A stretch of 19,161 bases of DNA from a virus (taxonomy: Duplodnaviria > Heunggongvirae > Uroviricota > Caudoviricetes). A program made the position numbers and the translations under genes. The notes under the pieces were generated by a model. That model had not been told where the DNA came from. It saw only the letters and a program-made list of their open reading frames with translations, and searched no databases. Of this stretch, positions 1 to 18,029 are shown in pieces. Each line of letters begins with the position of its first letter. Within the stretch, counting starts at the first letter, position 1. Location of the stretch: IMG/VR virus record IMGVR_UViG_2703718836_000007; one strand, given 5' to 3'.

Positions 1-405
1 ATGGATCAGGTCGTTGTTTTTCAAAAGATGTTTGAGCAAGTGAGAAAAGAGCAAAACTTCTCCTGGTTTTATTCAGAATTAAAACATCACCGTATTGCAC
101 ATTACATTTATTATCTGGCTACGGATAACATCAGAATTATTACTCACGATGATACGGTTTTGTTATTAAGAGGAACCAGGAACCTGTTAAAAGTTAGTAC
201 GACCAAGAACCCTGCTAAAATAAAAGAGGCCGCATTGCTCCATATTTGCGGAAAATCTACATTTCGGGAATACTGTTCAACACTGGCAGGCGCGGGCGTT
301 TTCCGGTGGGTTACTGATGTTAATCATAACAAACGCAGTTACTACGCCATTGATAATACGCTTTTATATATTGAAGATGTAGAAAATAATAAACCATTAA
401 TCTAG
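1..405 (+). CDS. ycgX: YcgX-like small protein (DUF1398-type), host/island flank
   Basis: 134-aa ORF starting at window base 1, directly upstream of iraM in the order I recall for E. coli (ycgX beside iraM). Identification is by remembered length and context, not a search. Confidence 0.5.
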   Translation: MDQVVVFQKMFEQVRKEQNFSWFYSELKHHRIAHYIYYLATDNIRIITHDDTVLLLRGTRNLLKVSTTKNPAKIKEAALLHICGKSTFREYCSTLAGAGVFRWVTDVNHNKRSYYAIDNTLLYIEDVENNKPLI

Positions 406-616
406 CTAAAGTTGGATACTTAAGAAATGCTTCATAATTCAGTAAGGCATTAGCATAATGGAAATAAAAGTGCAGAGACTATCTCTATGGATGATTAATA
501 CTGTCTTTTTATTGTCACCCATAAATAATCACCAGACTAATACTATCAACTTGATATTTGAAATGTGATCACTTGACTTTTGATACGTTATTTTATAACG
601 GTTAACATATTTATAA

Positions 617-661
617 AAACAACGGCCGTGCCACACGTCCGTTTCAATACTTAACGCACAT
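617..661. repeat. Second copy of the icd-terminator-like hairpin plus about 20 bp of 3' flank
   Basis: aacaacggccgtgccacacgtccgtttcaatacttaacgcacatg closely matches 1485-1527 (aacaacgggcgtgttatacgcccgtttcaatatttaacacatg). GC hairpin followed by a T-rich run on the minus strand. Confidence 0.5.
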
Positions 662-1019
662 GTATTTTGGTTTAGTCATCATCCGGTTATATGTATTTTA
701 GCCAGGAACAGGTTAAATCATTCCTATATAACTCAAAAATTGAAACCTTATTCTCATGTCATGCTTATATTCATTATTATCGTTATATAAAAAGGCAACC
801 ATAATGTTTAGCAAATTGGCACAAAGTAGCATAAAGGCTATGTTTTAATTACAGGATGTTCAGTCATTTGAATGTATAACATTATAGCTAAACAAATCTA
901 AAACGAAGTCAATAATTTATTGCTTTCACAAAATCTCATTTTGTTTAACATCCATTGAGATTCCTTGCTTTAAATTTTATTTTATATAAGCCATCATTTT
1001 AATTAATTTATTTTTTTGA

Positions 1020-1028
1020 GGGGGGGGG
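1020..1028. repeat. G9 homopolymer tract about 80 bp upstream of the iraM start
   Basis: Uninterrupted run of 9 G inside otherwise very AT-rich intergenic DNA (tttttttgagggggggggtaatatact), next to -10-like tatact. Confidence 0.7.
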
Positions 1029-1105
1029 TAATATACTCATATGCAAAATCAAGAAATAAACATCCTAATGAACCATATTAAATACCGTGGGATAAGACAT
1101 AACAA

Positions 1106-1429
1106 ATGAAGTGGATAGTAATTGACACGGTAATTCAACCTACATGTGGTATATCTTTTTCAGCCATATGGGGTAATATGAAAATGATCATCTGGTATCA
1201 ATCTACTATATTTCTCCCTCCTGGCAGTATATTTACACCGGTTAAGTCTGGTATTATCCTTAAGGATAAAGAATATCCTATTACTATTTATCACATCGCA
1301 CCATTCAACAAGGATTTATGGAGTTTACTCAAAAGCAGTCAAGAGTGTCCTCCAGGAGAAAGCAAAATAACAAATAAATGTTTACATAATAGTTGCATTA
1401 TAAAAATATGCCCATATGGGCTCAAGTAA
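1106..1429 (+). CDS. iraM: Anti-adaptor protein IraM (RssB inhibitor, stabilises RpoS)
   Basis: 107-aa [15 protein letters not shown]...[11 protein letters not shown] matches my memory of IraM/YcgW in sequence and length. AT-rich, and adjacent to the icdC remnant in the expected orientation. Confidence 0.75.
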
Positions 1430-1484
1430 TGGGCTTCATATAAATATGCTCGATATGCTATTAATAATATCCACATAAATAAAA

Positions 1485-1512
1485 CAACGGGCGTGTTATA
1501 CGCCCGTTTCAA
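1485..1512 (-). terminator. Rho-independent terminator of the displaced icd 3' end, possibly bidirectional and also serving iraM
   Basis: Hairpin aacgggcgtgttatacgcccgtt lies immediately downstream (minus strand) of the icdC stop and is followed by a T-run on the minus strand. Confidence 0.55.
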
Positions 1513-1531
1513 TATTTAACACATGGAGAGA

Positions 1532-1692
1532 TTACATGTTTTCGATGATCGCTTCACCAAACTCTGAACATTTCAGCAGCTTAGCGCCTTCCATCAGACG
1601 TTCGAAGTCATAAGTTACGGTCTTGGCATTGATTGCGCCTTCCATACCTTTAACAATCAGGTCAGCCGCTTCAGTCCAACCCATATGGCGCA
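1532..1692 (-). pseudogene. icdC: icdC: displaced 3' fragment of isocitrate dehydrogenase left at the prophage attR junction
   Basis: Minus-strand translation reads [54 protein letters not shown], the Icd C-terminus. There is no upstream icd coding sequence, and similarity stops abruptly near 1692. Confidence 0.85.
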
Positions 1693-1885
1693 GCAGTATA
1701 TAAAAACCATGAATTCAAGTCATTGATATTTAACGATAAAAATTATTTTATTGTCTTTTTATTAGCCAAAATAAACTTTATTCAACCGTTTGATTTCATT
1801 GACGTTCGTTTTTATTTTGGGGAAAGGTTTTCTCTACCATTTATATCCAAATTACAAGTCTACATTTTATTAACATCTCAATACA

Positions 1886-1916
1886 TGTGAGGCCTTGCAG
1901 ACCTTTGTGAGACCTT
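1886..1916. promoter_or_regulatory. Two 11-bp direct repeats (tgtgaggcctt / tgtgagacctt) 20 bp apart, with a partial third copy between; candidate recombinase or Xis arm-type binding sites
   Basis: 10 of 11 bp identical, spaced two helical turns apart, in a 700-bp noncoding stretch about 200 bp inside the attR junction. Confidence 0.25.
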
Positions 1917-2396
1917 ATGTGTCTCTGTTTTGTCCCAACTTATGTTAAGAGGCACATAATTAAAAATAAGATAACGATGCCGCCAAGCAGTGCAAAACCT
2001 TGTTTACTCCACGACTGTCTGCCCCATTATCTGCATACATAATTATCCTCCATAACTGAGATAAATGTCGGTTATGAGCGAACAACAGACGTTTAGTTTA
2101 TGATGGCTGTGTCTATACATTAAACATAACATCCATTACCGGCACCGCTTATTAATTGCTATCTGATATTGTCACTAAAAAAATAGGCATTCCCCGATAT
2201 AATAATCACAAAGAAGCTTTTGGTGCTGGCAATCGGTATACCTCATAGTGGACTGCGACTTTCCGGGCACGACAAGGATATATCAATGTATGAGCAGGAA
2301 AATTAGACCGTGGTGCGTCATATGATGACTAAGCACGGATAACAGCTACTTAATTGAAACTATTGATTATATTACAGCCAGTGCCTTATAGGATGG

Positions 2397-3518
2397 TTAG
2401 TCATCAACCGCGACTCCTGCACAATCATGGGCTATTGCCAGCAATTGTTTTTTAATTGCTTTAGCATCTACCGTCATATCTACTGTAGCAAAATGGATCT
2501 TATGTCCCTGAGTGACAACATACTCATTAAGCATATAGCCAACAGCTGGATGAAGTAGAAGACCAGCGGCATTGAGCGAAAGCGGATCCGTCTTGTTCTC
2601 CTGTGTTCTAAGGTAGGTATATAGCTGATAAATATAGCCATTACGTAGTGATTGCTCCCGATGCCAACCCTTTGTCAGAATCGAATTAAATTTGGTATCG
2701 ATAATAATACGCCGCTGGGCAGTCTTGTGTTCCAGAATAATGTCTGACTTCATTGTCGGGAAAATCTCTGCACTACCTGCACTTTGATCGCTCAACGCCC
2801 ATTTCAGCTCTTTCCCTGCAGAGACCTGCCAAGTTGTTTTGGCAAGGTGTACACGATATAAGCCAGCGATACCTTTTTCAAATAGTCTTCTCATCCAGTA
2901 AAGGTTATTTGAGGGCGCAGGTAAAAGATATTGGCCTTGATCTTCGGTCGGCATCAGCAGTTCAAAAGCTAATCGTGCGGCATCGACCATCGGTTTATCT
3001 GCGGCATCATGGCGTCCAAAACGCCACACTGAGGGTAATTCGCGGGGGGCAGGATATCCTCCATTTATCCCCTCACGGCGAAGTGATATTGCCATAAAAT
3101 GGCAATCTGCCGCCAAAGACGGTTTCACTATGATTGAGGCCAGACGTTCTAACGCACAGCGAACATAGCGATTTCGGGGGGTGTTGAGGGTTATGTCTTG
3201 AAAATGGCAGGCAACCTGTCCCCGTTCCAGCAGTTGATGACTGGCAGTATACAGTATGTCAATGCGCCCTCTCACCCGGTTCAGGGCCGCATGACAAGTT
3301 TGGTATCCCATATTTAAATTGCGACGTCGGCGCAGCGTAATCTCATGAAGGAGGATTGTCGCCACCAGGTCGGGGATTTCTGCTGGGTTATCTTCTACTG
3401 CGATCTGATTGCGCCCTAACTGGCGAAACAGATCTGAAGCGTACAGCATCAGCATCCAGATATTTCGCATGGGAATACGTGATGCTGTATGTTGCTCACT
3501 CCCGGTTATTGTCGTCAT
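2397..3518 (-). CDS. McrC-family nuclease subunit of a McrBC-type modification-dependent restriction system
   Basis: 373 aa. N-terminus IPMRNIWMLMLYA resembles E. coli McrC IPVRNIYYMLTYA. C-terminal PD-(D/E)xK-like core SDIIL...RRIIIDTKF...YIYQLYTYL...GLLLHPAVG. Its start overlaps the stop of the upstream McrB-like gene (translational coupling). Confidence 0.8.
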   Translation of the reverse strand: MTTITGSEQHTASRIPMRNIWMLMLYASDLFRQLGRNQIAVEDNPAEIPDLVATILLHEITLRRRRNLNMGYQTCHAALNRVRGRIDILYTASHQLLERGQVACHFQDITLNTPRNRYVRCALERLASIIVKPSLAADCHFMAISLRREGINGGYPAPRELPSVWRFGRHDAADKPMVDAARLAFELLMPTEDQGQYLLPAPSNNLYWMRRLFEKGIAGLYRVHLAKTTWQVSAGKELKWALSDQSAGSAEIFPTMKSDIILEHKTAQRRIIIDTKFNSILTKGWHREQSLRNGYIYQLYTYLRTQENKTDPLSLNAAGLLLHPAVGYMLNEYVVTQGHKIHFATVDMTVDAKAIKKQLLAIAHDCAGVAVDD

Positions 3519-5497
3519 TTTGCTAATAACACTTTTCTGGCTTCATCGACTTTATTTGGAGCATCGAACCAATATTCGGCGAGCAAAGGGCAGATCTCTG
3601 TATCAACGACTTGTTCATACCAAGCCTGGGCATCGTTGATTTTTTGGCCGATAGCTGGGGTGACATAGCTGTGACCGATACAAAACTGTGGTCCTAAGGT
3701 AACATCTTTTGCCAGCATATCGTTTAATACCGTCAGTCGAGATTTGATGAATGCTAACATGTCAAAATCAATTGCGTAATTATAATTTACCCAGTTTCTC
3801 CACGCGTCATTAAAAGCTGGCTTTAGATCGATAAACGCGAAACGACGGCGCAGCGCTAGGTCAAGTAGTGCGAGTGAGCGGTCTGCAATATTCATCGTAC
3901 CGATGATATATAGATTCTCAGGAATGTATATTTTTTCATCAGCATTTTTAGGATAGGAAAGAGATAATGCCTCAGTCGGCGTGCGTTTATCTGCTTCCAT
4001 CAACGTGAGTGTTTCACCGAAGATTTGCGCCGGATTGCCACGATTAATCTCTTCAATTATCACCACATATTTCGAGGTAGGATTATTGACTGCAGTTTTG
4101 ATTGCATTTACAAAAGGTCCATCAATTAGCGTCAATTGCCCTTCTTTACCTGGACGCCAGCCTCGAATAAAGTCTTCGTAAGAGAGGTTCGGGTGAAATT
4201 GCACCGCGCTAATACGCTCAGGTGCTTTTTCTCCCATCAAGCAGTACGCCAGACGTCGCGCTAACCAAGTTTTTCCAGTTCCGGGTGGTCCTTGTAATAT
4301 CAGGTTTTTCTTGTCGATCAGGCGCTGAAGTGTGAGTTGGATCTTAGCCTCTTCCAAGAAACAGCCATCCTGCACCAGATGACTGATGTCATAAGGAACG
4401 TGGGTGAGTTTTGGCAACAGCGCACTCTCTTCGACAGTTTCCTCAGTTATCGTCTGGGATTCGTTTTTCTCAAAATTCAGGTATTCATAATTTCCGGACT
4501 CGAGGGACTTTAACTCATCATCATTGCATAGTTTCTGTAGATAAAAGTAGATTGAGCTTGTAACAGTTTTGCTCTCAGGATGCTCTACCTTGAATACGTC
4601 CAAGTAGTTTTCTTCCAACTCCGAAGCAGTGAAATAAGGGCCATTTTTTTTCAGGCATAACGCCTTAATTTTATTCAGTAAAGAGGCTTTCCACGTTCTA
4701 TTTGCCACCTCATCTTTAGACTGGCTAAGATCTGTATTCCACGCTGATAAGGAAAGTTCTGGGAAAGAATGAACCGGATAGTTTGGTTGGGTAAAGACCT
4801 CGTTCAGCGCCCGCATAAGACTCAGGTAACTTTGTCCACTACAGCGACCTTTTGCCCCGTTTTTAATGATCTTAATGTTTAACACTGTCTGAATGTAATA
4901 CTGCGACTGGCTATCTAAAGTGGGGTAGAACCAAGGACGGGTCCAGTACAACCCCATGGTGAGATTCCAACCGACATTCATTACTGTAGAAGCGATGTCA
5001 TATGCGGCAGTGAAGTCTGCAGAGTTAGTATTCTGGTTATCCGCAAAGATCATTGCCTGTGAGAACATTTCCCACAAGCATTCAATGTCATTAGGGTCGC
5101 GTGACTTTTCATAACCAAAGAACCAAGATTTTTGGTTATTCAACAGAGGGATTCCGGCAAAGGAGTCAGGAATCGGTTCGTTCACGCCCAACAAATTCGC
5201 TAGCTTGGCAGCAATAATTTTGCGATTGCTGTCGGTCAAGTTACGATTGAACAAGCCCATAGTAGTAAACGGACAAATGTCTTTTAAGGGAAAGATCTCT
5301 CCCATAATAGATTTGTCCTGCAGATGGGACATTCCTTCCACACCCGAGGCAATTAGATGAATACCTTTGACTAATTCATCTCTACGATTTCGCCAAGTCA
5401 GTAACGCGTTGGCAAAAGCCTCATAAAAACTAGCCCAAGCAAACTTGCCATCATGTTCTGCTGTATCCACGGGAACTCCATTATACTTGTTGAGCAA
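3515..5497 (-). CDS. McrB-family AAA+ GTPase with a long (~390 aa) non-canonical N-terminal domain
   Basis: 660 aa. The C-terminal ~270 aa align with E. coli McrB: LILQGPPGTGKTWLARRLAYCLMGEKAP, VVIIEEINRGNPAQIFGETLTLME, YIPENLYIIGTMNIADRSLALLDLALRRRF, CIGHSY, PLLAEYWFD. The N-terminal 390 aa (W/Y-rich) do not resemble the ~160-aa McrB DNA-binding domain. Confidence 0.85.
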   Translation of the reverse strand: MLNKYNGVPVDTAEHDGKFAWASFYEAFANALLTWRNRRDELVKGIHLIASGVEGMSHLQDKSIMGEIFPLKDICPFTTMGLFNRNLTDSNRKIIAAKLANLLGVNEPIPDSFAGIPLLNNQKSWFFGYEKSRDPNDIECLWEMFSQAMIFADNQNTNSADFTAAYDIASTVMNVGWNLTMGLYWTRPWFYPTLDSQSQYYIQTVLNIKIIKNGAKGRCSGQSYLSLMRALNEVFTQPNYPVHSFPELSLSAWNTDLSQSKDEVANRTWKASLLNKIKALCLKKNGPYFTASELEENYLDVFKVEHPESKTVTSSIYFYLQKLCNDDELKSLESGNYEYLNFEKNESQTITEETVEESALLPKLTHVPYDISHLVQDGCFLEEAKIQLTLQRLIDKKNLILQGPPGTGKTWLARRLAYCLMGEKAPERISAVQFHPNLSYEDFIRGWRPGKEGQLTLIDGPFVNAIKTAVNNPTSKYVVIIEEINRGNPAQIFGETLTLMEADKRTPTEALSLSYPKNADEKIYIPENLYIIGTMNIADRSLALLDLALRRRFAFIDLKPAFNDAWRNWVNYNYAIDFDMLAFIKSRLTVLNDMLAKDVTLGPQFCIGHSYVTPAIGQKINDAQAWYEQVVDTEICPLLAEYWFDAPNKVDEARKVLLAK

Positions 5498-5601
5498 TGA
5501 TAATTTATCTGTGTGAGTTTTAACATATTACTATCAGTTATAGAAAAATTTAACTATCCGATACAGAGAGCGGAATGCTGAATTTGACCTGACTTGCTTC
5601 C

Positions 5602-5636
5602 AACCAATTAAAATCAACTTATTTATCAATTGGTTA
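5602..5636. promoter_or_regulatory. Perfect 8-bp inverted repeat (aaccaatt ... aattggtt) with 19-bp spacer between tfa and the McrB-like gene; candidate operator or weak terminator
   Basis: Palindrome seen directly in the sequence. No U-run follows on the minus strand, so it is not a classical terminator. Confidence 0.25.
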
Positions 5637-5694
5637 TTTTGGCACATGGCGGTCATCAAGGCAATATCGCGTTGTCATAAGGTGTCGAGGCTCG

Positions 5695-5717
5695 GAGGTT
5701 CAAATCCTCTCATACAA
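5695..5717 (+). other. tRNA 3'-end-like fragment (T-arm ggaggttcaaatcctct), resembling the tRNA-Pro T-arm; not a functional tRNA
   Basis: Contains the GGTTCAAATCC T-loop signature flanked by a 5-bp stem. D-arm, anticodon arm and CCA acceptor end are absent. Confidence 0.35.
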
Positions 5718-5830
5718 AAAATAAATAAAATTAATGACGGTTGGAAATTATTCAATACACTCTCGAAAGTACATCAGCCAACCGCAGCACGTTATTGCAT
5801 ATAACGTTTCTGCGGCATATCACAAAACTA

Positions 5831-6415
5831 TTATTCCATAACAGGGATTGCAGGCCACTCAATATCAGGTGCAGTTGATGTATCAACACGATTCAGCAAC
5901 ACCCGATACTTCTTCCAGGCTTCAAGCAACGAGGTTTCTTCCTCCGTTGCGATTTCCAGATCTGCAGCATCCTGAAGCGGGGCAATATGCTCACTGGCTA
6001 CCTGCATCAGGCTGTTTTTTGTTTCTTCCGCCTCCCGGATCCGGAACAGTTTTTCTGCTTCCGTATCCTTCACCCAGGCTGTGCCGTTCCACTTCTGAAA
6101 CTCCCCTTCCGGGGATAACCAGGTGATATTTTCCGGTAGAGGTCCGAGTTCAGAAATAAATAACGAGTCGCCGGAAGCCACGTCATAGACGGTTTTTCCC
6201 CGATGATCTTCAACGAGATGCCACGATGCCTCATCACTGTTGAAAACAGCCACGAAGCCTACCGGAATATCTGGCGGTGCAATATAGGTACTGTTTGCTG
6301 GCAGACCTGTATGAGGCGGAATATATGCGTCACCTTCACCAATAAATTCATTAGTTCCGGCCAGCAGATTATAAATTTTTATGGTCCGTGGTTGTTCACT
6401 CATTCTGAATGCCAT
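5831..6415 (-). CDS. tfa: Tail fiber assembly protein Tfa (lambda Tfa-like)
   Basis: 194 aa, [31 protein letters not shown]...[11 protein letters not shown], near-identical to lambda Tfa as I recall it. Start overlaps the stf stop. Confidence 0.9.
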
Positions 6416-9267
6416 TATGCAAGCCTCACAATGTAGTTAAATGCGATGTTTTTGACGGTGTTTTCCGCGTTACCAGCAGCGTTAACGGTGATGGTGTGTC
6501 CATGTGAGCCAATCGCAACGGAGTGCGTATGAGCACCAATACCGACAGTATGTGCATGTGCGCCTGCGCTTGCAGCAGTGCCGGACAGCGAGTGGGTATG
6601 AGCACCATCTGATGATGTCTTCCCTGCATTACGAGTCTGGCCACTACCGCTTGTTGTGCTCATAATCCCCGCGCTTAGATTTGAAATCGCGGTATAACCA
6701 TTAGGGAAAATGCTCGTGTTCGTGCCACCAAATGCACCGGAACTCTTGTGTTGGTGCGCACCGGCACTATTTGCGGTCCCGCTAATACTATGGGTATGCG
6801 CCCCGGTGTTATTCGTGGATTTGGTTCCGTAATCAAACGACGATGTGGTTTTCGTCCCCAAATCCGTACTGGATGCGCTGGCGCTGTGGGTGTGCGATTT
6901 AATGCCGTCCTGTTCCTGAGACAATACGGCCCGACCACTGGCAGGTTTGCCCTTAATCGTCCAGCCACGCATATCAGGGATCACGCCTGACGGATAAGCG
7001 GCTGCAAGTTTCGGGTAAGCAGATTTGTCAAAAGTCTGCCCCTGCATCAGGGCATAACCAGACGGAACGGTATCTGATGGCCACGGGATTGGTGCGCCGA
7101 CTGGGTAGCTTTCTGGTGGAAGATTTTTCGAGGTATAAACTTCTGCCCAGCCTTCCTCAAAACCATAACCGTCTCTTGAAGAACGGTAGAACAGACCACC
7201 ATTTCTGTAATGCGCCTTCATCTGCAGGGTCCGGCAACTTCCGACTCCGGTATAGAAGTTAACCAGAATATAGCTGTCGCCAGAGCGGGTGACATTGTAA
7301 GCGCCTGATTCGGCATTCCAGGGAACGCCACCATCCGCATCGGCATATGTATCCGTTGCCCTTCTGGCAAAAGCAGCCACATGCGCGGCGGTTAAAGTAA
7401 TATCTTTGGAACCATCAAATGGAACACCGGATATTTTTCTTGCAGTCTGGAGTTTTGTAGCAGTTGCAGCATTACCAGTGGTGTTCTGATTACCCGTAGT
7501 GTTTACACCTGGAAGGTTAATATTTGCAGAACCGTCGAAAACAACTCCACCGATAGATCTTGCCGTCTGCAATTTCGTGGCTGTACTTGCATTACCATTC
7601 AATGAACCAGTTAATCCACCTGTAACAGACAACGGACCTGAAACTGTTCCTCCGGTTGTTGGCAGTGCTCCAATATCTGATGGTGTAGGTTTCTGATGTG
7701 AGCTATACATCGTATAAACAACACCATAGGTAACGCTGGAAGGCTTACTCGCTGAATATGTTGGCGAGGTATAAACAGAAACTGACGCATTTGCAGTACA
7801 ATCCCAATGGATATTTACACTCGTCGCATAATTGCCAATCTCAACGTAAATATCATATGTATCGCCGGATGTGTTGATCCAGGCGAAATTCGTTAATCCG
7901 ACGGCTGTACGCTTCCACAAAGCCCCGGTAATTCCTTTGGGGTTTCCATTGCCTGCTCGTAGAACCAGTTCTGAAATGCCTGCCTGATGTGGGGAACCGA
8001 CGTTGTAACCAGCGCCACCAATCAATGCGATGTAAACGATGGAACTCGCTTGTGGCATGGTAACCGTAGCCAGTTTGAACCACCCAGCCCCGCCAGAGAA
8101 AGACATCGTTACTGAATTTAAAGTACCAATATCTTTCGGCGTTAATGTTATATCCGCAGTCAGTGCTTTTCCGTTAACTTTTCGGTTAGATGGCACCCTG
8201 CTATTCGCATTGTCATTGGCTGCTTTAACTGCTTTTGGCGTTGCGGCCAGCGATTCACTGGTGCTATCAACAGCACTGCTAAGTTTCACAACACCTTTAG
8301 TTGTAAGGCTTGCGTCTTCCATCGCAACTGCACCGGCAATCTCTTCAGCACGATCAGCAGCAGCTTCCGCACGGGTCGCAGCGGATTCAGCAGTAGTTTT
8401 GCTCTGAGATGCCGCCGTCGCACTGCCAGCTGCCTCTGTCGCCTTCGTGGATGCTGTCGTGGCGCTGCCTTTCGCTGCTGATGCCTGTCTGCTCGCCTCA
8501 TCTTTTGAAGCAGACGCAGATGATGCCGATGACGCCGCCGAACTGGCGGACGATGCAGCTGCCATTTTTGAGGATTCTGCACTGGTTTCCGAGGCTTTCG
8601 CGTTCGTTTCGGATGTCTTCGCTGCGGATGCAGACCTCGCTGCTGCGCTGGCCTGTTCAGCGGCTTCGCCAGCCTTCGTTGTGGCTGTTGAAGCAGACGA
8701 TGCGGCGCTTTCTGCCGATTTTCCGGCGGCGGTGGCACTGGCTGAGGCCTGCCCGGCACTTGTTGACGCGGCACTGGCAGACGACGCAGCCGCTGTTTTT
8801 GAGCCTGCCGCAGCCGAGGCGCTCTGTCCCGCTGCCGTTTCAGAAGACCTGGCGTTTGTCTCAGACGTCTTTGCCGCCTTCGCGGAATTGCCTGCCGCCG
8901 TTGCCGAGGAAGCGGCACTACTGGCGCTTGATGATGCGTTCGTTTCTGATGATTTCGCTGCCTCTTTTGAGGCCGCCGCATCCCGGGCTGAGGTGGCTGC
9001 TTCTGACGCCTTCGTGGTCGCGGCGGATGCAGAAGTGGCTGCTGATTGTTGTGACGCTGCCGCATTCGTTTCTGACGTTTTCGCCGCACCGGCACTGGTA
9101 GCTGCCGCGCTTTTTGAGGACTCTGCAGCAGCAGCACTTTTTGCTGCTTCACGGGCCTTTGTCGATGCCGTTCCTGCGCTGGAAGACGCTGACTGAGCCG
9201 ACGACGCGGCCTGTCCGGCTGACGTGCTGGCGGCACGTGCTGAGCCTGCAGCATCGGTTATTACCAC
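6415..9267 (-). CDS. stf: Side tail fiber protein Stf (lambda/Rac-like), N-terminally truncated at a deletion junction; probably non-functional
   Basis: C-terminus [31 protein letters not shown] and the HxH-rich region match lambda Stf. Long Ala/Ser/Thr-rich reiterated segment (KTSETNA units). The ORF opens with GTG at the junction; the canonical Stf N-terminal ~140 aa are missing. Confidence 0.75.
8370..9265. repeat. Reiterated low-complexity coding repeats (Ala/Ser/Thr-rich, recurring KTSETNA units) inside stf
   Basis: Direct reading of the stf translation. This segment generates three long spurious shadow ORFs in other frames. Confidence 0.7.
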
Positions 9268-10117
9268 TTCCCGGATCGCTATACGCTATTCCGTTAAAGA
9301 TAATGGGCGGAATAATGATTTGACGGTCAAAGTTATGATCATCGCTGATGGTGACTGTAACCGTCCCGTTTGGTGTTTCCGTATTACCCCACGTACCAGC
9401 CTGTTTCGGGAATGATTTGGATACAGCTTTAACGAAGTCACCTCTGACCTGAGTCGCCTCCAGCATGCCCTTAATCGTACAGTTTTCATTTACCGTGACA
9501 TTGTTGAGCGTCCCGGCGTTCGCATTCACACTGCCACTGATATCCGCATTTTTAGCGGTCAGCTTTCCGTCCGGTGTCAGGGAAAATGCCGGTGGATTTC
9601 CACCGCTGGTAATGGTGGGGGCCGTCAGGCGTTTCAGGAACACGTCGTTCATGAATATCTGATCGCCCTGACCAACAAACATCGGTTTTGTGTTGCCATT
9701 CGCAGGATTAACCATCGCAATCCTGTCCGCCGCCAGCAGCACCTGACTCTGCATGCCGTCAGGGGTGTTCTCAATATCCACGATGGCCTCTTTTTCCGGT
9801 ACATGCTGCACGGCGGTGATGGCATACGTGCCGTCGTCGTTCTCACGGATACTCACGCAGCGGAACAGGCGCTGGCGCAACGTCGGCAGCTTCAGCCCCC
9901 ATACGCTGTATTCAGCAACGCCGTCAGGAACACGGCTCACTTTCACCTTCACGCCGTCGGTGACGGACTGAACCTCCACGCTGACCGGACTCCCCTGCCC
10001 GTCAACCAGGCTTATCAGCGTGGTGCCGGAAGATGGCAGCGTGATTTCACGGTCGAGCGTCAGCGTCCGGGTCTGGCTGTTTACCGCCAGCACGCGCCCG
10101 CCGGTGCGGATACCCAA
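9149..10117 (-). pseudogene. Fragment of the lambda J-like tail tip host specificity protein
   Basis: Translation [25 protein letters not shown]...[15 protein letters not shown]...[43 protein letters not shown]...DDHNFDRQI matches internal and C-terminal J segments. J is over 1100 aa and only about 270 aa are present. The frame then runs out of register across the stf 5' end. Confidence 0.8.
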
Positions 10118-10335
10118 GCTGGAGTGGCGAACGTTTTACCCTTGCTGATGAGGTATTCACTGATTTCGCTGTACCACATGTGGCTGAGTGCATTCTGGGA
10201 AAGACTGCGTCTCTCGCGCCACGGTTTAAGCACCATGCGAAAGCATTTGCCGTCCTCCAGATAAGGCTGGATCTGCCGACCGATAGCGGTGAAGTTACCG
10301 CGATGCAATTTGATACCATCTTGTGGGAGGTTCAC
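10081..10335 (-). pseudogene. NinB/YbcN-family protein, N-terminal fragment fused by deletion to the J fragment
   Basis: 84-aa ORF with RSLSQNALSHMWYSEIS, resembling the NinB RSLDQN motif and YbcN-like N-termini. Homology ends at about 10095, where J homology begins. Confidence 0.55.
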
Positions 10336-10529
10336 GCTTCACCTCCGCAGAGATCAAACGCTGGATGCAAAATATCGCAGGTGCATTTCTGCATCTGTGA
10401 ATGGAGAAGAGAGGTTGGATTGTATGTGCGCATAAACGTCCCCGTTTAGCGCAGAAGTCACCGGAGTTGTTCAGGCCCCAATGGCATGATTATGGCTGGT
10501 TGATTATTGGAAATCAAATGTGCTGAAAA

Positions 10530-11039
10530 TTAGTCTGCCAAGTCTTCCTCAGTCGCAACTGGGTAATTCCAAATATCAAAAAAAGCTATAGCCTCCTGCC
10601 ATTTGCTCCATAAGTTATCAAGTACTTGTGTAGGTTCCGTACTTTTAAAAACAGAATCAGCCGCATCACCGTTATGAACTTCCTCGTACAGTTCCATTAT
10701 TAGCAGATTAACAAAGTACTGTTTCAACATTAATGCCTGATTACCTTCTTTCTGCTGGCTATCCTGCTTGATGATCTCCATCGCCCGTACTAGGCACCTG
10801 ATGATATCCGCTGCATCATTAACGCTCCATTCAGATCCGCGCTTATCTTTAGCTGATGAATTGGCTCTCTCAGCGCAAGCCTTTAAAGACTCATAAAGGT
10901 AAACTCTATTTTGTAGCTGCAGCGCTTTTTTTGACGTGTACCAACTTGCAAGCGCCGACCCCGCTGCGGCTAATGTGCCAAACGCAGAAATACCTGCTGC
11001 TATTGCACTTAAGTCGGCACTGTCAAAGTTCCACATCAT
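10530..11039 (-). CDS. Uncharacterised protein with a single predicted N-terminal transmembrane anchor
   Basis: 169 aa. Hydrophobic segment LSAIAAGISAFGTLAAAGSALASWY at residues ~10-34, followed by an acidic soluble domain. SD-like aaggtg upstream and an AT-rich promoter-like region at 11040-11297. No homolog recognised. Confidence 0.55.
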   Translation of the reverse strand: MMWNFDSADLSAIAAGISAFGTLAAAGSALASWYTSKKALQLQNRVYLYESLKACAERANSSAKDKRGSEWSVNDAADIIRCLVRAMEIIKQDSQQKEGNQALMLKQYFVNLLIMELYEEVHNGDAADSVFKSTEPTQVLDNLWSKWQEAIAFFDIWNYPVATEEDLAD

Positions 11040-11297
11040 CGTTACACCTTATATAAATACCCCTCAGTAATATCCAATAAGGTATGTGCACAATCAATAT
11101 AATTTTATCCGTATCGGCACATAGCGATTTGAACGCTACTGGTAATGGTATATTTTAGATTATATCGTCCAGTTTACAGCACCCGTATTTTATGAAATGG
11201 ACTCGCATATTACCCAAAAAATGCCAGCACTTCCGTCATCGTAGAATGCTGGCAGTATTTCTAACTAGTGACTTTATTGGAACAGATTCTGACGGAA

Positions 11298-11597
11298 TTA
11301 TGGTAACACTCGACTCCACTTATCATCCAGCCACGGCTGGAATTTTACATGTGCCGTTTCTCTGGCGAGGATTGCTCGCGCTCTGTTGAGTATCTGGGGA
11401 TATTCTTGCTCGATAGAAGTAAAGCGGCCGGCTTCGCGGTGCTCCGCAACCTGAAGTAGTGGAGTAACGTTCTGGCAGGCAGTTAACATCACATCACCTG
11501 CTCGCCATAACCAAGCACGTGCACAAAGTTTGTTATCAGTGAATTGTTTTGTGATTGGGTATTGTTGAACTGCTAGAACGAGAACGCCAGCATCCAT
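11298..11597 (-). CDS. Hypothetical protein, 99 aa
   Basis: ORF with a moderate RBS. Sits where DLP12-type prophages carry ybcL/ybcM. No recognisable motif; could be a gene fragment. Confidence 0.35.
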   Translation of the reverse strand: MDAGVLVLAVQQYPITKQFTDNKLCARAWLWRAGDVMLTACQNVTPLLQVAEHREAGRFTSIEQEYPQILNRARAILARETAHVKFQPWLDDKWSRVLP

Positions 11598-11708
11598 TGG
11601 CAGTCCCTATAGTAAAACCATAGCTCAGGACGCTTCGTTCAGGATAGATAATTTTATTGTACTTACCTAACTTTCTTACTATAGCACGGTTGAAAAAGTG
11701 ATTATTAC

Positions 11709-13235
11709 TCAAAAATAAACCTCACCATCAACCATATATTTGAGAGTACTTATCGCCTGCTGGGCGGATATTGTTTTCATTAAAGGATAGTGTTTAAAAA
11801 CAATGCCATTCATAAAATAGATATCACAGGTTTTATTATCTGTATTGATTATGATTTTTTCGAATGTTTTATAGGCAAGTGTACGACATAGCTCTCGCCC
11901 ATTTTTACTGGTTAAGTCAATAGCATGAAAATCACCAAGTGAACTCACCGCTTTACTCTTCAAAGTTTTTAATGATACAGAAGCCCTTCGTAATTCCTTA
12001 TCTAATACTCTGATTTTTTCTGCTATAGCGGTAACTTCAGGCGCAACAGATAATGCAGCAATTAAATTATTAATTTTCATCTGGAGCTCAATAATTTTCA
12101 ACTCTAAAGTTTCATTAGCATCTTTCTTGTTTTCAACTGGTTGGATTTTACTACAATTAAAAAGCAACTCATTAATGATATTATAATCAACCAAATCTCT
12201 CTTTATTGATGGCCTGTCACATCGATGCAGTCTTCTCATCGGACAAACATAATAGCCATGCAAACTTCCAGATACCGCATGAACAATCATGGTATTACCA
12301 CAAGCCTCGCACTTCATAACTGTTCGAAGTAGATTTATCAACATAGGATTTTTGCTACTATTGCTAATACCAAAAGGTGCCAACCGAATTTCCTGCACAG
12401 CGTAAAACAAATCATCTGATATGACTCTGGGATAATAGCCAGCGATTTCACTTATTCCTTTACCTCTTGCACGATATGAAGGTACGCATATACCTATCAG
12501 AGCTTTATTCGCTAATAATTTTTCAATTACAGAAGGTCCCCATGCACTTTCTTTTCCTGAGAAATTCTTTACAGCATGATCATTTAAATACTTGGCTATT
12601 GCATTCAATGAGCGCCTTTCCATCCTGAGTTTAAAAATTAGCTCAATAGTTTTCACCCTGTCGGGGTCTGGAACAAAAGCCGTTCTTTTGTCATCCAATG
12701 AGAGCCATCTCGGACAAGACGCCGTCATAATCGTGCCTGACTCCAGTGCATCCTGCCGTTTTTTCTTCCATGATAATTTAACCCGACTTGACTTTATCTC
12801 GCTTTCTTCATTTGCCCTTTGTGCTATAAGTATGGCTTTTATTAATGAATATGGCTCATTCAATGAGTCAATATTATAGACTGTATTATCGCAAAGAGTT
12901 ATAACATCAATACCGTGATTCAAAATCAATTTCAGACGCTCAATCGCCTCACCGACTTTTTCTCTTGAAAGTCTGTCCAGACTTTCAACTAACAATGTAG
13001 TCCCTGGCAATATATAACCATGTTCTATAGCATCTAAAAATTCCGAAAAAGCTCCTGATTGTGCATGCTTTCCATTGAATGCGCTTAACCCCAAATCTTC
13101 ATACGTTACGGTATCAAGGTAATAATCACTATTTACCTTTAGCCATTCAGTAATAAGCCTTCTCTGGCGGTTTAATGAATCACCAGACATCTGACTTGGT
13201 GATGAAAATCGCATATATGCTATGGCTTTTTTCAT
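11709..13235 (-). CDS. ybcK: Large serine recombinase (YbcK-like, resolvase/invertase N-terminal catalytic domain)
   Basis: 508 aa. N-terminal AIAYMRFSSPSQ serine-recombinase catalytic motif. Low GC. Downstream of emrE, as in the DLP12 emrE-ybcK arrangement I recall. Confidence 0.75.
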   Translation of the reverse strand: MKKAIAYMRFSSPSQMSGDSLNRQRRLITEWLKVNSDYYLDTVTYEDLGLSAFNGKHAQSGAFSEFLDAIEHGYILPGTTLLVESLDRLSREKVGEAIERLKLILNHGIDVITLCDNTVYNIDSLNEPYSLIKAILIAQRANEESEIKSSRVKLSWKKKRQDALESGTIMTASCPRWLSLDDKRTAFVPDPDRVKTIELIFKLRMERRSLNAIAKYLNDHAVKNFSGKESAWGPSVIEKLLANKALIGICVPSYRARGKGISEIAGYYPRVISDDLFYAVQEIRLAPFGISNSSKNPMLINLLRTVMKCEACGNTMIVHAVSGSLHGYYVCPMRRLHRCDRPSIKRDLVDYNIINELLFNCSKIQPVENKKDANETLELKIIELQMKINNLIAALSVAPEVTAIAEKIRVLDKELRRASVSLKTLKSKAVSSLGDFHAIDLTSKNGRELCRTLAYKTFEKIIINTDNKTCDIYFMNGIVFKHYPLMKTISAQQAISTLKYMVDGEVYF

Positions 13236-13427
13236 GGTGACACCTGCTAAAGTATGCTTTTATAAACCTTAGTGGTGAGATATGATTTTTGTTTAATTTT
13301 TATTTAAAAAGACAATTAAGGTCACATTATCTTGAATATACAACAATAATCGTATTGCAATTTTCTTACACCATAATCTTGAAAGCACAAAAGAATGAAT
13401 AAAAACTAAAGACATTAACAAAAAGCA

Positions 13428-13462
13428 TAAAACGAGGCCCATATAAATATACGAGCCTCCAT
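13428..13462 (-). terminator. Candidate rho-independent terminator downstream of emrE
   Basis: Imperfect hairpin (gaggc...atat / atat...gcctc) followed by a U-rich tract on the minus strand. Confidence 0.3.
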
Positions 13463-13490
13463 ATTTTAGTCGTTTAAAAACAAATTATTT

Positions 13491-13823
13491 TTAATGTGGT
13501 GTGCTTCGTGACAATAAATTAATAACCAACACACCGGCACAAATCAACATCATGCCTATAATGGCTGGCAGGTCCAACCGTTGGCCGAAAAATCCCCATG
13601 ATAGTAAGCTAATCAGGACAATACCGACTCCTGACCAGATAGCATAAGCAATCCCTGTAGGAATATAAGCCAGCGTCTGAGCTAATAACCAGAATGATGC
13701 ACAATAACAAATAATTGTACCAACAGATGGCCATAACCGTGTAAAACCTTCTGAAAACTTCATTAAGGTTGTACCAATGACCTCTGCAAGTATTGCACCA
13801 CCAAGATAAATATAAGGATTCAT
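13491..13823 (-). CDS. emrE: Small multidrug resistance (SMR) efflux transporter EmrE
   Basis: MNPYIYLGGAILAEVIGTTLMKFSEGFTRLWPSVGTIICYCASFWLLAQTLAYIPTGIAYAIWSGVGIVLISLLSWGFFGQRLDLPAIIGMMLICAGVLVINLLSRSTPH, 110 aa from the internal Met, which has an aggaaag RBS. The longer ORF-track start is an artefact. Confidence 0.9.
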   Translation of the reverse strand: MNPYIYLGGAILAEVIGTTLMKFSEGFTRLWPSVGTIICYCASFWLLAQTLAYIPTGIAYAIWSGVGIVLISLLSWGFFGQRLDLPAIIGMMLICAGVLVINLLSRSTPH

Positions 13824-13890
13824 AGCATATTCTTTCCTGTTCAAACTGGAGAGAATTGTACTACAGTTTGAACTCAACTCACCTGTTTCA

Positions 13891-14193
13891 TCATTGTGTA
13901 CCCATTGATGTTCTTTTATATACCCTCAATACCCGTTTCATCGCGGCACTCTGGCGACACTCCTTAAAAATCAAATTCGTGCTCACCTTTCCTTCCCATT
14001 CTTCTCTGGTAGCGAACCGATAATACACCGTTCGCCAGACCTTACCATCAACGACTAGGATTCCTGCCCGCGCCATTTTAGCCGCAGCCTGATTTATGCT
14101 GGTTACCGTTGCGCCTGTTACCGCGGCAACGTCCTGCGCACAGAATTTCTTATGAGTCCCCAGGTAATGAATAATTGACTCTTTGCCCGTCAT
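13891..14193 (-). CDS. ren: Ren protein (lambda Ren-like, Rex exclusion escape)
   Basis: MTGKESIIHYLGTHKKFCAQDVAAVTGATVTSINQAAAKMARAGILVVDGKVWRTVYYRFATREEWEGK... matches lambda Ren. Start overlaps the P stop. Confidence 0.85.
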   Translation of the reverse strand: MTGKESIIHYLGTHKKFCAQDVAAVTGATVTSINQAAAKMARAGILVVDGKVWRTVYYRFATREEWEGKVSTNLIFKECRQSAAMKRVLRVYKRTSMGTQ

Positions 14194-14891
14194 ACCCTTG
14201 CTCCTTTCAGCCCAAACTTAGCTTTGATTTCTGCGATCTTCGCCAGAGCCTGTGCACGATTTAGAGGTCTACCGCCCATGACAGGAAGTTGTTTTACTGG
14301 TTCAGGTATAGCCTCACCACGGTTAATTCGTGCGGTCATACAGGACAGTTCATCGGCAGCCTTGCGCCGTAATTCCGCGTCAGTCAACGCATTGGCCCGC
14401 ATGTTCTGATACAGGTTGGTAACCAGCCAGTAGTGCGCGTTTGATTTCCACGGATAAGACTCTGCATCCGGATACAGCCCGCGCTTCCGGCAATACTCGT
14501 AAACCATATCAACCAGCTCGCTGGCGTTTGGCAGCCCGGCGGTAACGGATGCTTCTTCCCGGCACCAGGCGACAAACTGCCCGGGTGATGGCAGGAATGG
14601 TCGATTCTGCCGACGGGCTACGCGCATTCCAGCGTTAACCTGTTCCATTGTGGTGATCCCGTTTTCCCGAAAAGCCAGCACCCACTGGCGGCGGATTTCG
14701 TTCAGTTCATTCTGGTCACGGTTAGCCAGGCTCGCCGGGAAAGTTGCCAGTAACTGGCTGAACACACCGTTGATGATCTGCGCTACCTGCTGTACCTGTG
14801 GCTTTTCGTCGTACTGTTCCGGCATGTTGTTGGCGATCCGACGCATCTGCTCACGGTCAAAGTTAACCATCTGTGCGGCGATGTTTTTCAT
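14190..14891 (-). CDS. P: Replication protein P (DnaB helicase loader), full length
   Basis: 233 aa, MKNIAAQMVNFDREQMRRIANNMPEQYDEKPQVQQVAQIINGVFSQLLATFPASLANRDQNE..., near-identical to lambda P. Confidence 0.9.
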   Translation of the reverse strand: MKNIAAQMVNFDREQMRRIANNMPEQYDEKPQVQQVAQIINGVFSQLLATFPASLANRDQNELNEIRRQWVLAFRENGITTMEQVNAGMRVARRQNRPFLPSPGQFVAWCREEASVTAGLPNASELVDMVYEYCRKRGLYPDAESYPWKSNAHYWLVTNLYQNMRANALTDAELRRKAADELSCMTARINRGEAIPEPVKQLPVMGGRPLNRAQALAKIAEIKAKFGLKGARV

Positions 14892-15120
14892 AGATCCACC
14901 CCGTAAATCCAGTCAGTGTTTGTCAGGTCGAGTTTTGGTTTGCCGACTGTCACGCCAGCCTGTTGCTTGTTCCGGTTGATTTCGAGCTGGGTCCACTTGT
15001 CGCGGAGTTTGGCCGGACTCAGCACGTTACCGGACCAGAAGTTGTCCTGGCAGGCCCAGCGGAACAGTACACACATGTCGCGGTGGTTACGTCCATCACG
15101 TTCACGCATCAGACGGATAT
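14888..15120 (-). pseudogene. Replication initiator O, C-terminal fragment only (N-terminal origin-binding domain and ori deleted)
   Basis: Translation ends ...[15 protein letters not shown], overlapping the P start as in lambda. The upstream part of the ORF-track ORF is just antisense of exo. The upper boundary is approximate. Confidence 0.6.
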
Positions 15121-15121
15121 C

Positions 15122-15778
15122 GTTACCGGGATCGACGTGAGAGCTGTCGAACAGGGGGATGATGCGTGGCACAAATTACGGCTCGGCGTCATCACCGCTT
15201 CAGAAGTTCACAACGTGATAGCAAAGCCCCGCTCAGGAAAGAAGTGGCCTGACATGAAAATGTCCTACTTCCACACCCTGCTTGCCGAGGTTTGCACCGG
15301 TGTGGCTCCGGAAGTTAACGCTAAAGCACTGGCCTGGGGAAAACAGTACGAGAACGACGCCAGAACCCTGTTTGAGTTCACTTCCGGCGTAAATGTTATT
15401 GAATCCCCGATCATCTATCGCGACGAAAGTATGCGCACCGCCTGCTCTCCCGATGGTTTATGCAGTGACGGCAATGGCCTTGAACTGAAATGCCCGTTTA
15501 CCTCCCGGGATTTCATGAAGTTCCGGCTCGGTGGTTTCGAGGCCATAAAGTCGGCTTACATGGCCCAGGTGCAGTACAGCATGTGGGTGACGCGAAAAGA
15601 TGCCTGGTACTTTGCCAACTATGACCCGCGTATGAAGCGTGAAGGCCTGCATTATGTCGTGGTTGAGCGGGATGAAAAGTACATGGCGAATTTTGACGAG
15701 ATGGTGCCGGAGTTCATCGAAAAAATGGACGAGGCACTGGCTGAAATTGGTTTTGTATTTGGGGAGCAATGGCGATGA
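15122..15778 (+). pseudogene. exo: Lambda exonuclease (Red alpha / Exo), 5'-truncated at a deletion junction with no native start codon
   Basis: [85 protein letters not shown]...[15 protein letters not shown] matches lambda Exo from residue ~10 to the end. The first ~9 codons are replaced by antisense O/P sequence. Confidence 0.8.
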
Positions 15779-15929
15779 CGCATCCTCACGATAATATCCG
15801 GGTAGGCGCGATCACTTTCGTCTACTCCATTACAAAGCGAGGCTGGGTATTTCCCGGCCTTTCTGTTATCAGAAATCCACTGAAAGCACAGCGGCTGGCT
15901 GAGAAGATAAATAACAAACAGGAGGATAT

Positions 15930-16994
15930 ATGAGTCAGGTTGGTAATCATTCATTCGAATTTCCGGCATCGCAAGGTGTACAGGGTGGTACTGTTACACT
16001 CTTCCTTACCATACCAGGAAGATCGCTGGCTCGTTTCCTCGCTTCAGATAATTACGGCCATACACTGGAACGCTCTCAGCGAGAAATTAATCCAAATCGA
16101 GTACGAAAATTTTTAAATTATCTCACTAACGCAGACTCAAGAAATGAGCCTTTTATCATTCCCCCTCTCGTAGGTAACTGTGATTCGAATATAGAATTTG
16201 TACCGTTTGGCAACACAAATGTTGGTATAGCCAGAATTCCCCTCGACGCCGAAATAAAACTTTTTGATGGTCAACATCGTGCAGCTGGCATTGAGATATT
16301 TTGCCGAAGTTCCCCATCAACGCTCATGGTTCCCATGATGCTTACAATGAATCTGCCGCTAAAAACCCGGCAGCAGTTCTTTTCGGACATAAATAACAAC
16401 GTTTCTAAGCCATCAGCGACCATCAATATGGCGTATAACGGCCGGGATGATATTGCTCAGGGAATGATATCCTTCCTGACCCAACATACTGTATTTGCCG
16501 ATATAACCGATTTTGAACACAACGTAGTGCCATTAAAAAGTAATATGTGGGTGAGTTTCAAGGCACTCACTGATGCAACGTCAAAGTTCGCTAGGAACGG
16601 CAATCAACAACTTGAAATGGGATATATAGAATCTGTCTGGGAGGCATGGATTACACTAACTCAGATTGACTCAATCCGACATGGTGTACACCACGCTACG
16701 TACAAGCGCGATTATATTCAGTTCCATGGAGTAATGATTAACGCTTTCGGTTTTGCGGTTCAACAGATGATGGTTAATCATTCCATCGCAGAAATAACTT
16801 CTATGATCGAAAAACTATGTGCAACTACCAGCTCTGCAGAAAGAGAGGATTTTTTTCTGATGGATAACTGGGCGGGGATCTGCACGAAAGCCAGCCAGGA
16901 AAAACTATCTGTTATTGCCAATGTGGCAGCGCAGAAAGCAGCAGCAAACAGACTGATACAAGCTTTTACCAAAGGAAGTCTGGAAACAACTTAA
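15930..16994 (+). CDS. DGQHR-domain protein (DndB-like, ParB/Srx-fold), orphan
   Basis: 354 aa carrying the diagnostic motif in IKLFDGQHRAAGIEIF. Strong SD (caggagg) 7 nt before the ATG. AT-rich relative to the neighbouring lambda genes. No dndCDE, dpd or ssp partner genes in the window. Confidence 0.75.
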   Translation: MSQVGNHSFEFPASQGVQGGTVTLFLTIPGRSLARFLASDNYGHTLERSQREINPNRVRKFLNYLTNADSRNEPFIIPPLVGNCDSNIEFVPFGNTNVGIARIPLDAEIKLFDGQHRAAGIEIFCRSSPSTLMVPMMLTMNLPLKTRQQFFSDINNNVSKPSATINMAYNGRDDIAQGMISFLTQHTVFADITDFEHNVVPLKSNMWVSFKALTDATSKFARNGNQQLEMGYIESVWEAWITLTQIDSIRHGVHHATYKRDYIQFHGVMINAFGFAVQQMMVNHSIAEITSMIEKLCATTSSAEREDFFLMDNWAGICTKASQEKLSVIANVAAQKAAANRLIQAFTKGSLETT

Positions 16995-17071
16995 TGAATC
17001 AACATTGTCTCATATCAGCATGCTGTACGGCGTCTTTAAGGAACGGTGAGCATGAAAAACAAAATCATCAT

Positions 17072-17092
17072 GGAGCTACAGGCTCCTTTTTT
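17072..17092 (+). terminator. Rho-independent terminator downstream of the DGQHR gene
   Basis: ggagc-tacag-gctcc hairpin followed by tttttt. Confidence 0.5.
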
Positions 17093-17147
17093 ATTATTCG
17101 CATTCACCCTCAAGCGTATTAACCAACAATTCAGGGATTAATGAAAG

Positions 17148-17366
17148 ATGGCAGACATCATTGATTCAGCATCAGAAATTGAAGAATTACAGCGCAACAC
17201 AGCAATAAAAATGCGCCGCCTGAACCACCAGGCTATATCTGCCACTCATTGTTGTGAGTGTGGCGATCCGATAGATGAACGAAGACGCCTGGCCGTTCAG
17301 GGTTGTCGGACTTGTGCAAGTTGCCAGGAGGAGATCGAACTTAAGAACAAACAATGGGGACTGTGA
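17148..17366 (+). CDS. TraR/DksA-family C4 zinc finger protein (lambda exo-xis region orf73-like)
   Basis: 72 aa with CCECGDPIDERRRLAVQGCRTCASCQEE, a CxxC...CxxC arrangement like TraR (CEACGNPIPEARRK...CVECQ). Confidence 0.75.
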   Translation: MADIIDSASEIEELQRNTAIKMRRLNHQAISATHCCECGDPIDERRRLAVQGCRTCASCQEEIELKNKQWGL

Positions 17367-17413
17367 TGGCTTCAAAGCAGCAAATTTCAACATCGTCCAA
17401 CTGAGGTGTAAAA

Positions 17414-17653
17414 ATGTTCAGAATCATTTTTCCTAACACCTGGTACGTCGACCACCACGGCACTCCCTGCAAAATCCTGCGTTCTACCCACAACAAAGTT
17501 CACTACATCCGAAAAGGCAGAACATGTATCGCCAGCATGTTCCGCTTTAATCATGACTTTGAACCTGTGAATAAAGCTGATGCAGATCGGATAGCAGAAG
17601 AGATCGAAACGGCAGAACACATTAAGAAGTTACGTGCCATACGCAGGAAATAG
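17414..17653 (+). CDS. Small phage protein of the exo-xis region, function unknown
   Basis: 79-aa ORF with SD gaggtg upstream, between the TraR-like gene and xis. Confidence 0.45.
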   Translation: MFRIIFPNTWYVDHHGTPCKILRSTHNKVHYIRKGRTCIASMFRFNHDFEPVNKADADRIAEEIETAEHIKKLRAIRRK

Positions 17654-17792
17654 AAAAATTGATAAATTCAATACTGCATTACTCAGCATTAAATTTATCT
17701 CTATGACCAGTCAAGAGATGTACCTGCCATGAGCTTAATATCATGTCAGATATATCGGTCACAAACTCCCTCAGCAGCTAAGAGGAGGACAA

Positions 17793-18029
17793 ATGTCTCG
17801 ACTAATCACTTTACAGGACTGGGCTAAAGAAGAATTTGGGGACTTAGCACCAAGTGAGCGAGTTCTGAAAAAATACGCGCAAGGGAAAATGATGGCCCCA
17901 CCCGCTATAAAAGTTGGTCGCTACTGGATGATTGACCGAAATTCCCGTTTTGTAGGAACGCTTGCAGAACCGCAACTCCCAATAAACGCAAACCCAAAAC
18001 TCCAACGGATAATCGCTGATGGCTGCTAG
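17793..18029 (+). CDS. xis: Excisionase (Xis), lambda-type
   Basis: 78 aa, MSRLITLQDWAKEE...VLKKYAQGKMMAPPAIKVGRYWMIDRNSRFVG. Strong SD (aagaggagg). Stop overlaps the int start. Position and orientation are typical of xis-int. Confidence 0.75.
   Translation: MSRLITLQDWAKEEFGDLAPSERVLKKYAQGKMMAPPAIKVGRYWMIDRNSRFVGTLAEPQLPINANPKLQRIIADGC

Follow-up and report, generated by a model that had tools for sequence, protein, structure and literature searches.

The locus considered here raises two linked questions: how a 3' fragment of icd came to lie near one end of it, and what kind of prophage stands between that fragment and the integrase gene at the other end. The stretch of DNA analysed (19,161 nucleotides, hereafter the window) is Escherichia coli chromosome, 100% identical over all 19161 bases to strain NCTC9100 (NZ_LR134239.1, 2570689-2589847), and at least 80% of it is contained in 17 complete genomes. 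We are highly confident that the fragment, at 1532-1695, represents the 3' end that the chromosomal icd originally had, displaced to attR by the integration of a phage 21-type lambdoid prophage that has since undergone deletion.

Attachment-site junctions at icd

The five features on which this reading turns lie within the first two kilobases of the window.

1-1480, plus strand: chromosomal flank with ycgX (1-405), ymgL, ymgK and iraM (1106-1429), assigned by identity to K-12.
1486-1508, minus strand: intrinsic terminator of icd, kept downstream of the displaced fragment, assigned from stem, T-run and fold energy.
1532-1695, minus strand: what we read as the displaced host icd 3' end, equivalent to icdC and forming the B' side of attR, from its identity to icdC and NDM2 and the RefSeq pseudogene call.
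1668-1695, no strand: crossover interval common to attB, attP, attL and attR, TGCTGCGCCAYATGGGTTGGACTGAAGC, from four-way comparison.
1696-1950, no strand: P arm of an attP of the phage 21 type, containing a single exact Int site of the arm type, from identity to the attP of phage 21 and Perceval.

The homology to icd covers 164 nt on the minus strand, corresponding to the last 54 codons and the stop, and the minus-strand translation of 1532-1699 encodes the Icd C-terminus; RefSeq records that same interval, on the same strand, as an incomplete isocitrate/isopropylmalate dehydrogenase pseudogene. The first-pass annotation of this DNA had placed an Icd C-terminus with its terminator at 1532-1692, and both are indeed present, with the true end 3 nt further, at 1695. 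It had also considered that the fragment might belong to an intact icd extending upstream. The match of the window to K-12 icd is confined to 1481-1695, and hence 1532-1695 is not the tail of a longer icd. The fragment shows no mismatch over its 164 positions either to K-12 icdC or to the icd 3' end of NDM2, in which icd is free of any insert, whereas 13 of the same 164 positions differ from the 3' end that the phage has supplied to the intact icd of NCTC9100. The terminator that follows, a 9-bp stem with six G-C pairs and then a T-run on the minus strand (fold energy -22.6 kcal/mol, z = -4.2), is identical to that of the unoccupied site in NDM2.

Past 1695 the resemblance to icd ends, while the match to the attP of phage 21 and Perceval continues to about 1950; over 1479-1950, the arm included, the attP regions of the two phages are 90.5% (phage 21) and 92.6% (Perceval) identical to the window. 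Within the arm, an arm-type Int site, CTTTCCCCAAAA, is found exactly at 1815-1826 on the minus strand, and it fits the attP consensus annotated in the phage 21 GenBank record, which also annotates a 165-bp ICDH-like pseudogene, a terminator and attP itself. Here the shared core links a phage 21 P arm to the 3' end of the host icd, as belongs to an attR of this type. The earlier proposal that the fragment marks the attR junction of an icd-integrated prophage is thereby borne out, the fragment lying at the int-distal end of the element with a P arm on one side and host-type B' on the other.

The opposite junction and the intact icd lie beyond the window and were read from the 100%-identical NCTC9100. 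An intact icd had been predicted just beyond the integrase, and it is there: 416 codons, 114 bp beyond int, with a product 99% identical to K-12 Icd. This gene is completed by a phage-borne 3' end and terminator beside int, which is the feature expected of attL, and its encoded C-terminus reads FGDAIIKNM, the same as in phage 21 and Perceval.

Comparison of the attL and attR cores, also suggested at first pass, gives phage and host halves as expected. The attB of NDM2 reads ...GAGATGATGCTGCGCCATATGGGTTGGACTGAAGCGGCTGACC; on the left the attR of the window is phage, ...TATATACTGCTGCGCC, and from there on it is host-type throughout; and the attL of NCTC9100 has a host left side followed by phage-type substitutions starting at GCCGCAGACC. 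In the orientation of icd, attR is thus phage-like to the left of 1695 and host-like to the right of 1668, where attL is phage-like, and the crossover must therefore fall inside the shared interval at 1668-1695. This four-way arrangement is the classical Campbell pattern. Since attL and attR differ within the shared interval at one position (CAC versus CAT), sequence locates the exchange to the interval and not to an exact base. Excision of e14 changes codon H366 from CAC to CAT (PMC13626634), which puts the exchange in e14 within the first 10-11 nt of the interval, and the present element may share that position.

Junctions of this kind are common. A 511-nt probe spanning the phage 21-type right junction (1440-1950, at least 80% covered) is found in 1463 of 5426 complete E. 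coli genomes, about a quarter, and an equivalent probe for the e14/mcrA junction in 342 of the same 5426.

Integration module and relationships of the prophage

The prophage end next to the fragment, and the modules behind it, comprise the following.

2397-5470, minus strand: predicted McrBC-like type IV restriction cassette, with McrC at 2397-3470 and a McrB-like GTPase at 3515-5470, from NCBIfam, Pfam and a match to EcoKMcrB.
5831-10112, minus strand: eroded tail-fibre end, with tfa at 5831-6415, stf at 6415-9267 and two joined J fragments at 9255-10112, from RefSeq and Pfam.
10111-10518, minus strand: nin-region fragment fused directly to the middle of J, matching Perceval 42842-42435 and DLP12 ylcH/ybcN.
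11709-15124, minus strand: ybcK (11709-13235), emrE (13491-13823), ren (13891-14193), P (14190-14891) and a C-terminal fragment of O (14888-15124), from annotation.
15124-15125, no strand: O'/exo' deletion junction, whose neighbouring bases map about 5.9 kb apart in Perceval.
15119-19161, plus strand: early-left and integration end, with exo (15119-15778), DUF1317, a DGQHR/DndB-like gene (15930-16994), TraR (17148-17366), DUF4222 (17414-17653), xis (17793-18029) and int (18019-19161), from Int/Xis identity and domain hits.

From the icd fragment onward, the RefSeq order is mcrC, AAA ATPase, tfa, tail-fibre gene, J fragment, ybcK, emrE, ren, P, O fragment, exo, DGQHR protein, TraR, DUF4222, xis and int. 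The lambda-type tfa, stf, J, P, ren and exo that had been recognised at first pass, together with emrE and the YbcK-like recombinase, are all recovered by RefSeq annotation and Pfam, J as a fragment. The lambdoid order (int-xis-exo / O'-P-ren-nin / J'-stf-tfa-cargo-attR) is retained and is collinear with Perceval, phage 21 and lambda except at the deletions.

The integration module identifies the class of the element. Of the two integrases that had been named as references, phage 21 Int shares 99.7% identity over 380 aa with the Int encoded here and the IntE of K-12 e14 no more than 60%, and Xis is identical to phage 21 Xis at 78 of 78 residues. Insertion at the icd attB is common to this element and e14, and the markers of e14 membership (IntE, the e14 arms, lit, pin, mcrA and the ymf genes) are absent; nor does the element belong with DLP12, lying as it does in icd with phage 21 Int and not at argU with IntD. 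Having lost the repressor, the origin, Q, the lysis and head genes and most of the tail genes, the element is not a complete inducible phage genome. The element is a defective phage 21-type lambdoid prophage in icd, a deletion derivative that is a member of neither e14 nor DLP12; it has its attB in common with e14 and one module in common with DLP12 through the shared lambdoid gene pool.

Local BLAST maps of the prophage portion (1696-19161) match Perceval over 48%, phage 21 over 30%, lambda over 27% and DLP12 over 24%. The same map finds no e14 DNA in 1696-19161, only the icd copies being shared, and the original impression of a content unlike that of e14 was therefore correct. Phage 21 (OL657228) resembles the element in Int, Xis, the P arm of attP, the arm-type site and lambdoid order, and in carrying within attP the last 165 bp of icd with the terminator. 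It differs in that only about 30% of the prophage DNA matches, in having sitABCD beside attR where the McrBC-like cassette lies here and orf61/63 where the DGQHR gene lies here, and in retaining the immunity, origin, lysis, head and tail genes that are deleted here. Perceval (OV696612), a complete phage of 50 kb, carries phage 21-type int-xis together with O, P, RenD, EmrE and a YbcK recombinase, and its matches to 48% of the prophage DNA are at 91-99% identity; in contrast to the remnant of about 17.5 kb in the window, it is complete and has sitABCD, and the two differ in cargo and in tail-fibre genes.

It might be supposed instead that the element is a hybrid produced by exchange among resident cryptic prophages, DLP12-like modules having moved into an element at the e14 site, and the first-pass annotation had indeed taken the gene content to imply module exchange between cryptic prophages that normally occupy different sites. 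DLP12 of K-12 does share the P'-ren-emrE-ylcJ-ybcK block at about 94-96% identity, the ybcK-emrE-ren portion (11670-14104) matching at 95.8% and the adjacent P and exo segments at 93.7% and 97.7%, and it, too, has lost the immunity region from between exo and P, although it sits at argU with IntD and its deletions have other end points. The figure for ybcK-emrE-ren is, however, equalled by Perceval, in which the larger ybcK-emrE-ren-P-O' segment (11428-15125) is also 95.8% identical and is physically linked to the same int-xis; Perceval also matches the int-proximal region (17014-19161), at 98.8%. In the phage collection, the DNA is likewise matched best by deposited phages such as 4A7, 1W, 3W, Lambda_4C10 and D2, and these five have the same integrase at 99.5% and the YbcK gene among their matched features. 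With phage 21-type int-xis and P-ren-emrE-ybcK already together in a sequenced phage, exchange between cryptic prophages is not needed to account for the content. Given also that the integrase is phage 21 Int, not IntE, and that e14 DNA is absent, we consider a hybrid very unlikely, and regard the earlier claim as one framed too closely around the prophages of K-12. Mosaicism is real in this element, but it is of the general lambdoid kind.

Still less probable is a divergent e14 that has lost its characteristic genes. The attB is the same, the displaced fragment is identical to the icdC of K-12, and both elements have a gene for restriction of modified cytosine beside attR (mcrA in e14, the McrBC-like pair here). 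Against this stand an integrase only 60% identical to IntE, a P arm that differs from the e14 attR and matches phage 21, the absence of lit, pin, mcrA and the ymf genes, and the lack of any prophage DNA in common. A chance or segmental duplication of icd with no link to phage integration has nothing in its favour but the existence of the duplicate, and it can be dismissed given that the duplicate stops at the exact base that marks the edge of the homology to phage 21 attP and that the opposite copy adjoins int.

Phage 21-type integration thus remains our reading of the fragment. Integration of phage 21 and e14 at one icd attB, with duplication of the 3' end, is classical, and the phage 21-type arrangement was described in the 1990s. 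For e14, the case (Hill 1989) is summarised in PMC6379469 and PMC13626634. The junction type is already known and the pseudogene already annotated in RefSeq; the value of the present analysis lies in filing the element correctly, among defective phage 21-type prophages instead of among e14 variants or hybrids of K-12 prophages, and there is little in it by way of discovery.

Deletions and cargo of the remnant

Two large deletions account for much of the erosion. At the O'/exo' junction, bases 15124 and 15125 are neighbours in the window, and their counterparts in Perceval, 37361 and 31438, stand about 5.9 kb apart; lost with the intervening DNA were bet, gam and kil, the immunity region (cI, cro, cII) and the N-terminus of O with the origin, and pL and cII are consequently gone from the prophage. 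The second, from nin to J, has its junction at 10111-10114 and removed about 24 kb, including Q and the lysis, cos, head and tail genes. The two J pieces map to Perceval 18681-18177 and 17313-16974, a further deletion being internal to J. Strain E94 carries a less eroded relative that has the same two ends and still holds genes lost in the nin-to-J deletion, and in BH100N icd is occupied by a phage 21-type prophage that is full-length (46 kb) and has the int-xis module in common with the element. What is left of the tail-fibre end matches the Pfam families Collar, Phage_fiber, Phage_Tail_Tip and Ig_GpJ_C, and 5780-6552, which spans tfa, shares 93.5% identity with lambda across tfa and the end of stf; the ybcK region has Pfam serine recombinase domains.

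We propose that a lambdoid phage with the phage 21 module would have entered icd by Int-mediated site-specific recombination, its attP supplying a separate copy of the final 164-165 bp of icd and a terminator. With a crossover near the 5' edge of the icd homology, inside TGCTGCGCCAYATGGGTTGGACTGAAGC, the host icd would be completed by phage DNA at attL and remain functional, and the host's own 3' end and terminator would be left at attR as a silent pseudogene. Some 30 kb would later have been lost in at least two large deletions (immunity/origin and nin-to-J), with int, xis and both junctions kept. We infer this order of events from what can be read directly in the DNA, namely the junction anatomy, the identity of the modules, the deletions and the intact icd of an identical genome; it is also possible that the remnant can still excise.

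Next to attR, the genes at 2397-5470 are predicted from sequence to form a McrBC-like type IV restriction pair. McrC scores 356 bits with the NCBIfam equivalog NF007277, above the cut-off of 338, and is also matched by Pfam McrBC. The McrB-like protein matches EcoKMcrB over its GTPase (AAA+) domain only (residues 369/378-654), where residues 369-652 match EcoKMcrB structures at E of about 1e-75, and as a whole it scores 262 bits against a cut-off of 637. Its residues 1-368 match nothing in Pfam or among PDB sequences, and an N-terminal DNA-binding domain of the EcoKMcrB type was thus not found; with Pfam E values of up to 5, only a non-significant DpnI_C appears there (E = 0.15). None of phage 21, Perceval and lambda contains the DNA at 1951-5693. 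E94 has the cassette at the same place, and 289 genomes cover at least 80% of window 1-5600, which runs from ycgX to the McrB-like gene. The cassette takes the position held by mcrA in e14 and by sitABCD in phage 21. The icd-proximal end of these prophages is thus a common spot for defence cargo (mcrA, McrBC-like, sitABCD), which may be of use to surveys of defence islands.

Other features of the remnant deserve brief mention. The DGQHR/DndB-like gene (15930-16994, plus strand) stands alone in the early-left operon between DUF1317 and TraR, in place of lambda orf61/63 and with no further dnd genes nearby; the gene is kept in the E94 relative and is split by IS1 in strain Z1323PEC0012. RefSeq calls a hypothetical protein of 245 aa at 8447-9196 on the plus strand, opposite the 950-codon stf frame (6415-9267, minus strand), and shortens the tail-fibre gene accordingly. 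The region has 61% G+C and a strong AT skew, and the opposite-strand call is probably an annotation artefact. Within tfa, 5874-6072 on the minus strand matches Rfam IS009 at 214 bits.

The iraM flank and the second terminator copy

The flank on the host side of attR is itself of some interest. Positions 1-1698 are 99.8% identical to K-12, and the icd terminator occurs in this flank twice, as direct repeats that are 84% identical: the intact copy at 1481-1523 and a degenerate one at 616-658 (repeat D1), whose fold is no better than that of shuffled sequences. Between the two copies lies an iraM-ymgK segment of 865 bp (an island at about 665-1480), with 29-36% G+C as against 29-37% for the whole flank (1-1600). 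The segment is present in 3942 of 5426 genomes and absent from about 27%, and the absence falls exactly between the repeats (for example in BH100N, locus L016); in BH100N and in contig L012, a single terminator is joined straight to the ymgL flank.

IraM regulates the stability of RpoS, and homologues of it with 65% identity are cargo of Stx2 lambdoid phages. Its gene has been placed on e14 (PMC4045071); the segment is present in NDM2, which is free of the prophage, and iraM therefore lies outside e14, contrary to that assignment. We tentatively suggest that the icd 3' end is a landing site that has been reused serially, leaving nested scars, and that iraM is the domesticated relic of an earlier phage integration and part of neither e14 nor the core chromosome, a possibility to which we would give rather less than even weight. 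Loss of the segment by recombination between the prophage-borne terminator and the distal repeat fits equally well as an older insertion. Alignment of 659-860 with 1524-1700 scores no better than shuffles, and decayed icd coding sequence was thus not found beside the second terminator, which indicates that only the terminator and 3'UTR were duplicated. No homologue of IraM or IraL was found on the phage 21-type prophages of BH100N, Perceval, phage 21 and E94.

A scan of genome contigs for the terminator pattern, made for outgroup states, returned seven loci, of which those of E. albertii and Escherichia sp. show phage 21-type attL junctions only; another locus (L009) is, on our reading of its sequence, interrupted by an IS1-like element. 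The iraM-less allele was also considered as the ancestral state, a candidate weakened by the fact that the attR fragment of BH100N is itself phage 21-type. That fragment (L020 48520-48687) ends in FGDAIIKNM and has 10 mismatches to the fragment in the window, implying that in the BH100N lineage phage-derived sequence had already replaced the icd 3' end once before.

We note finally that ycgX, at the outer edge of the flank, encodes a DUF1398 protein, like ybcV of DLP12. The low G+C content of the flank suggests that this nominally chromosomal side of attR also goes back to an old horizontal acquisition.
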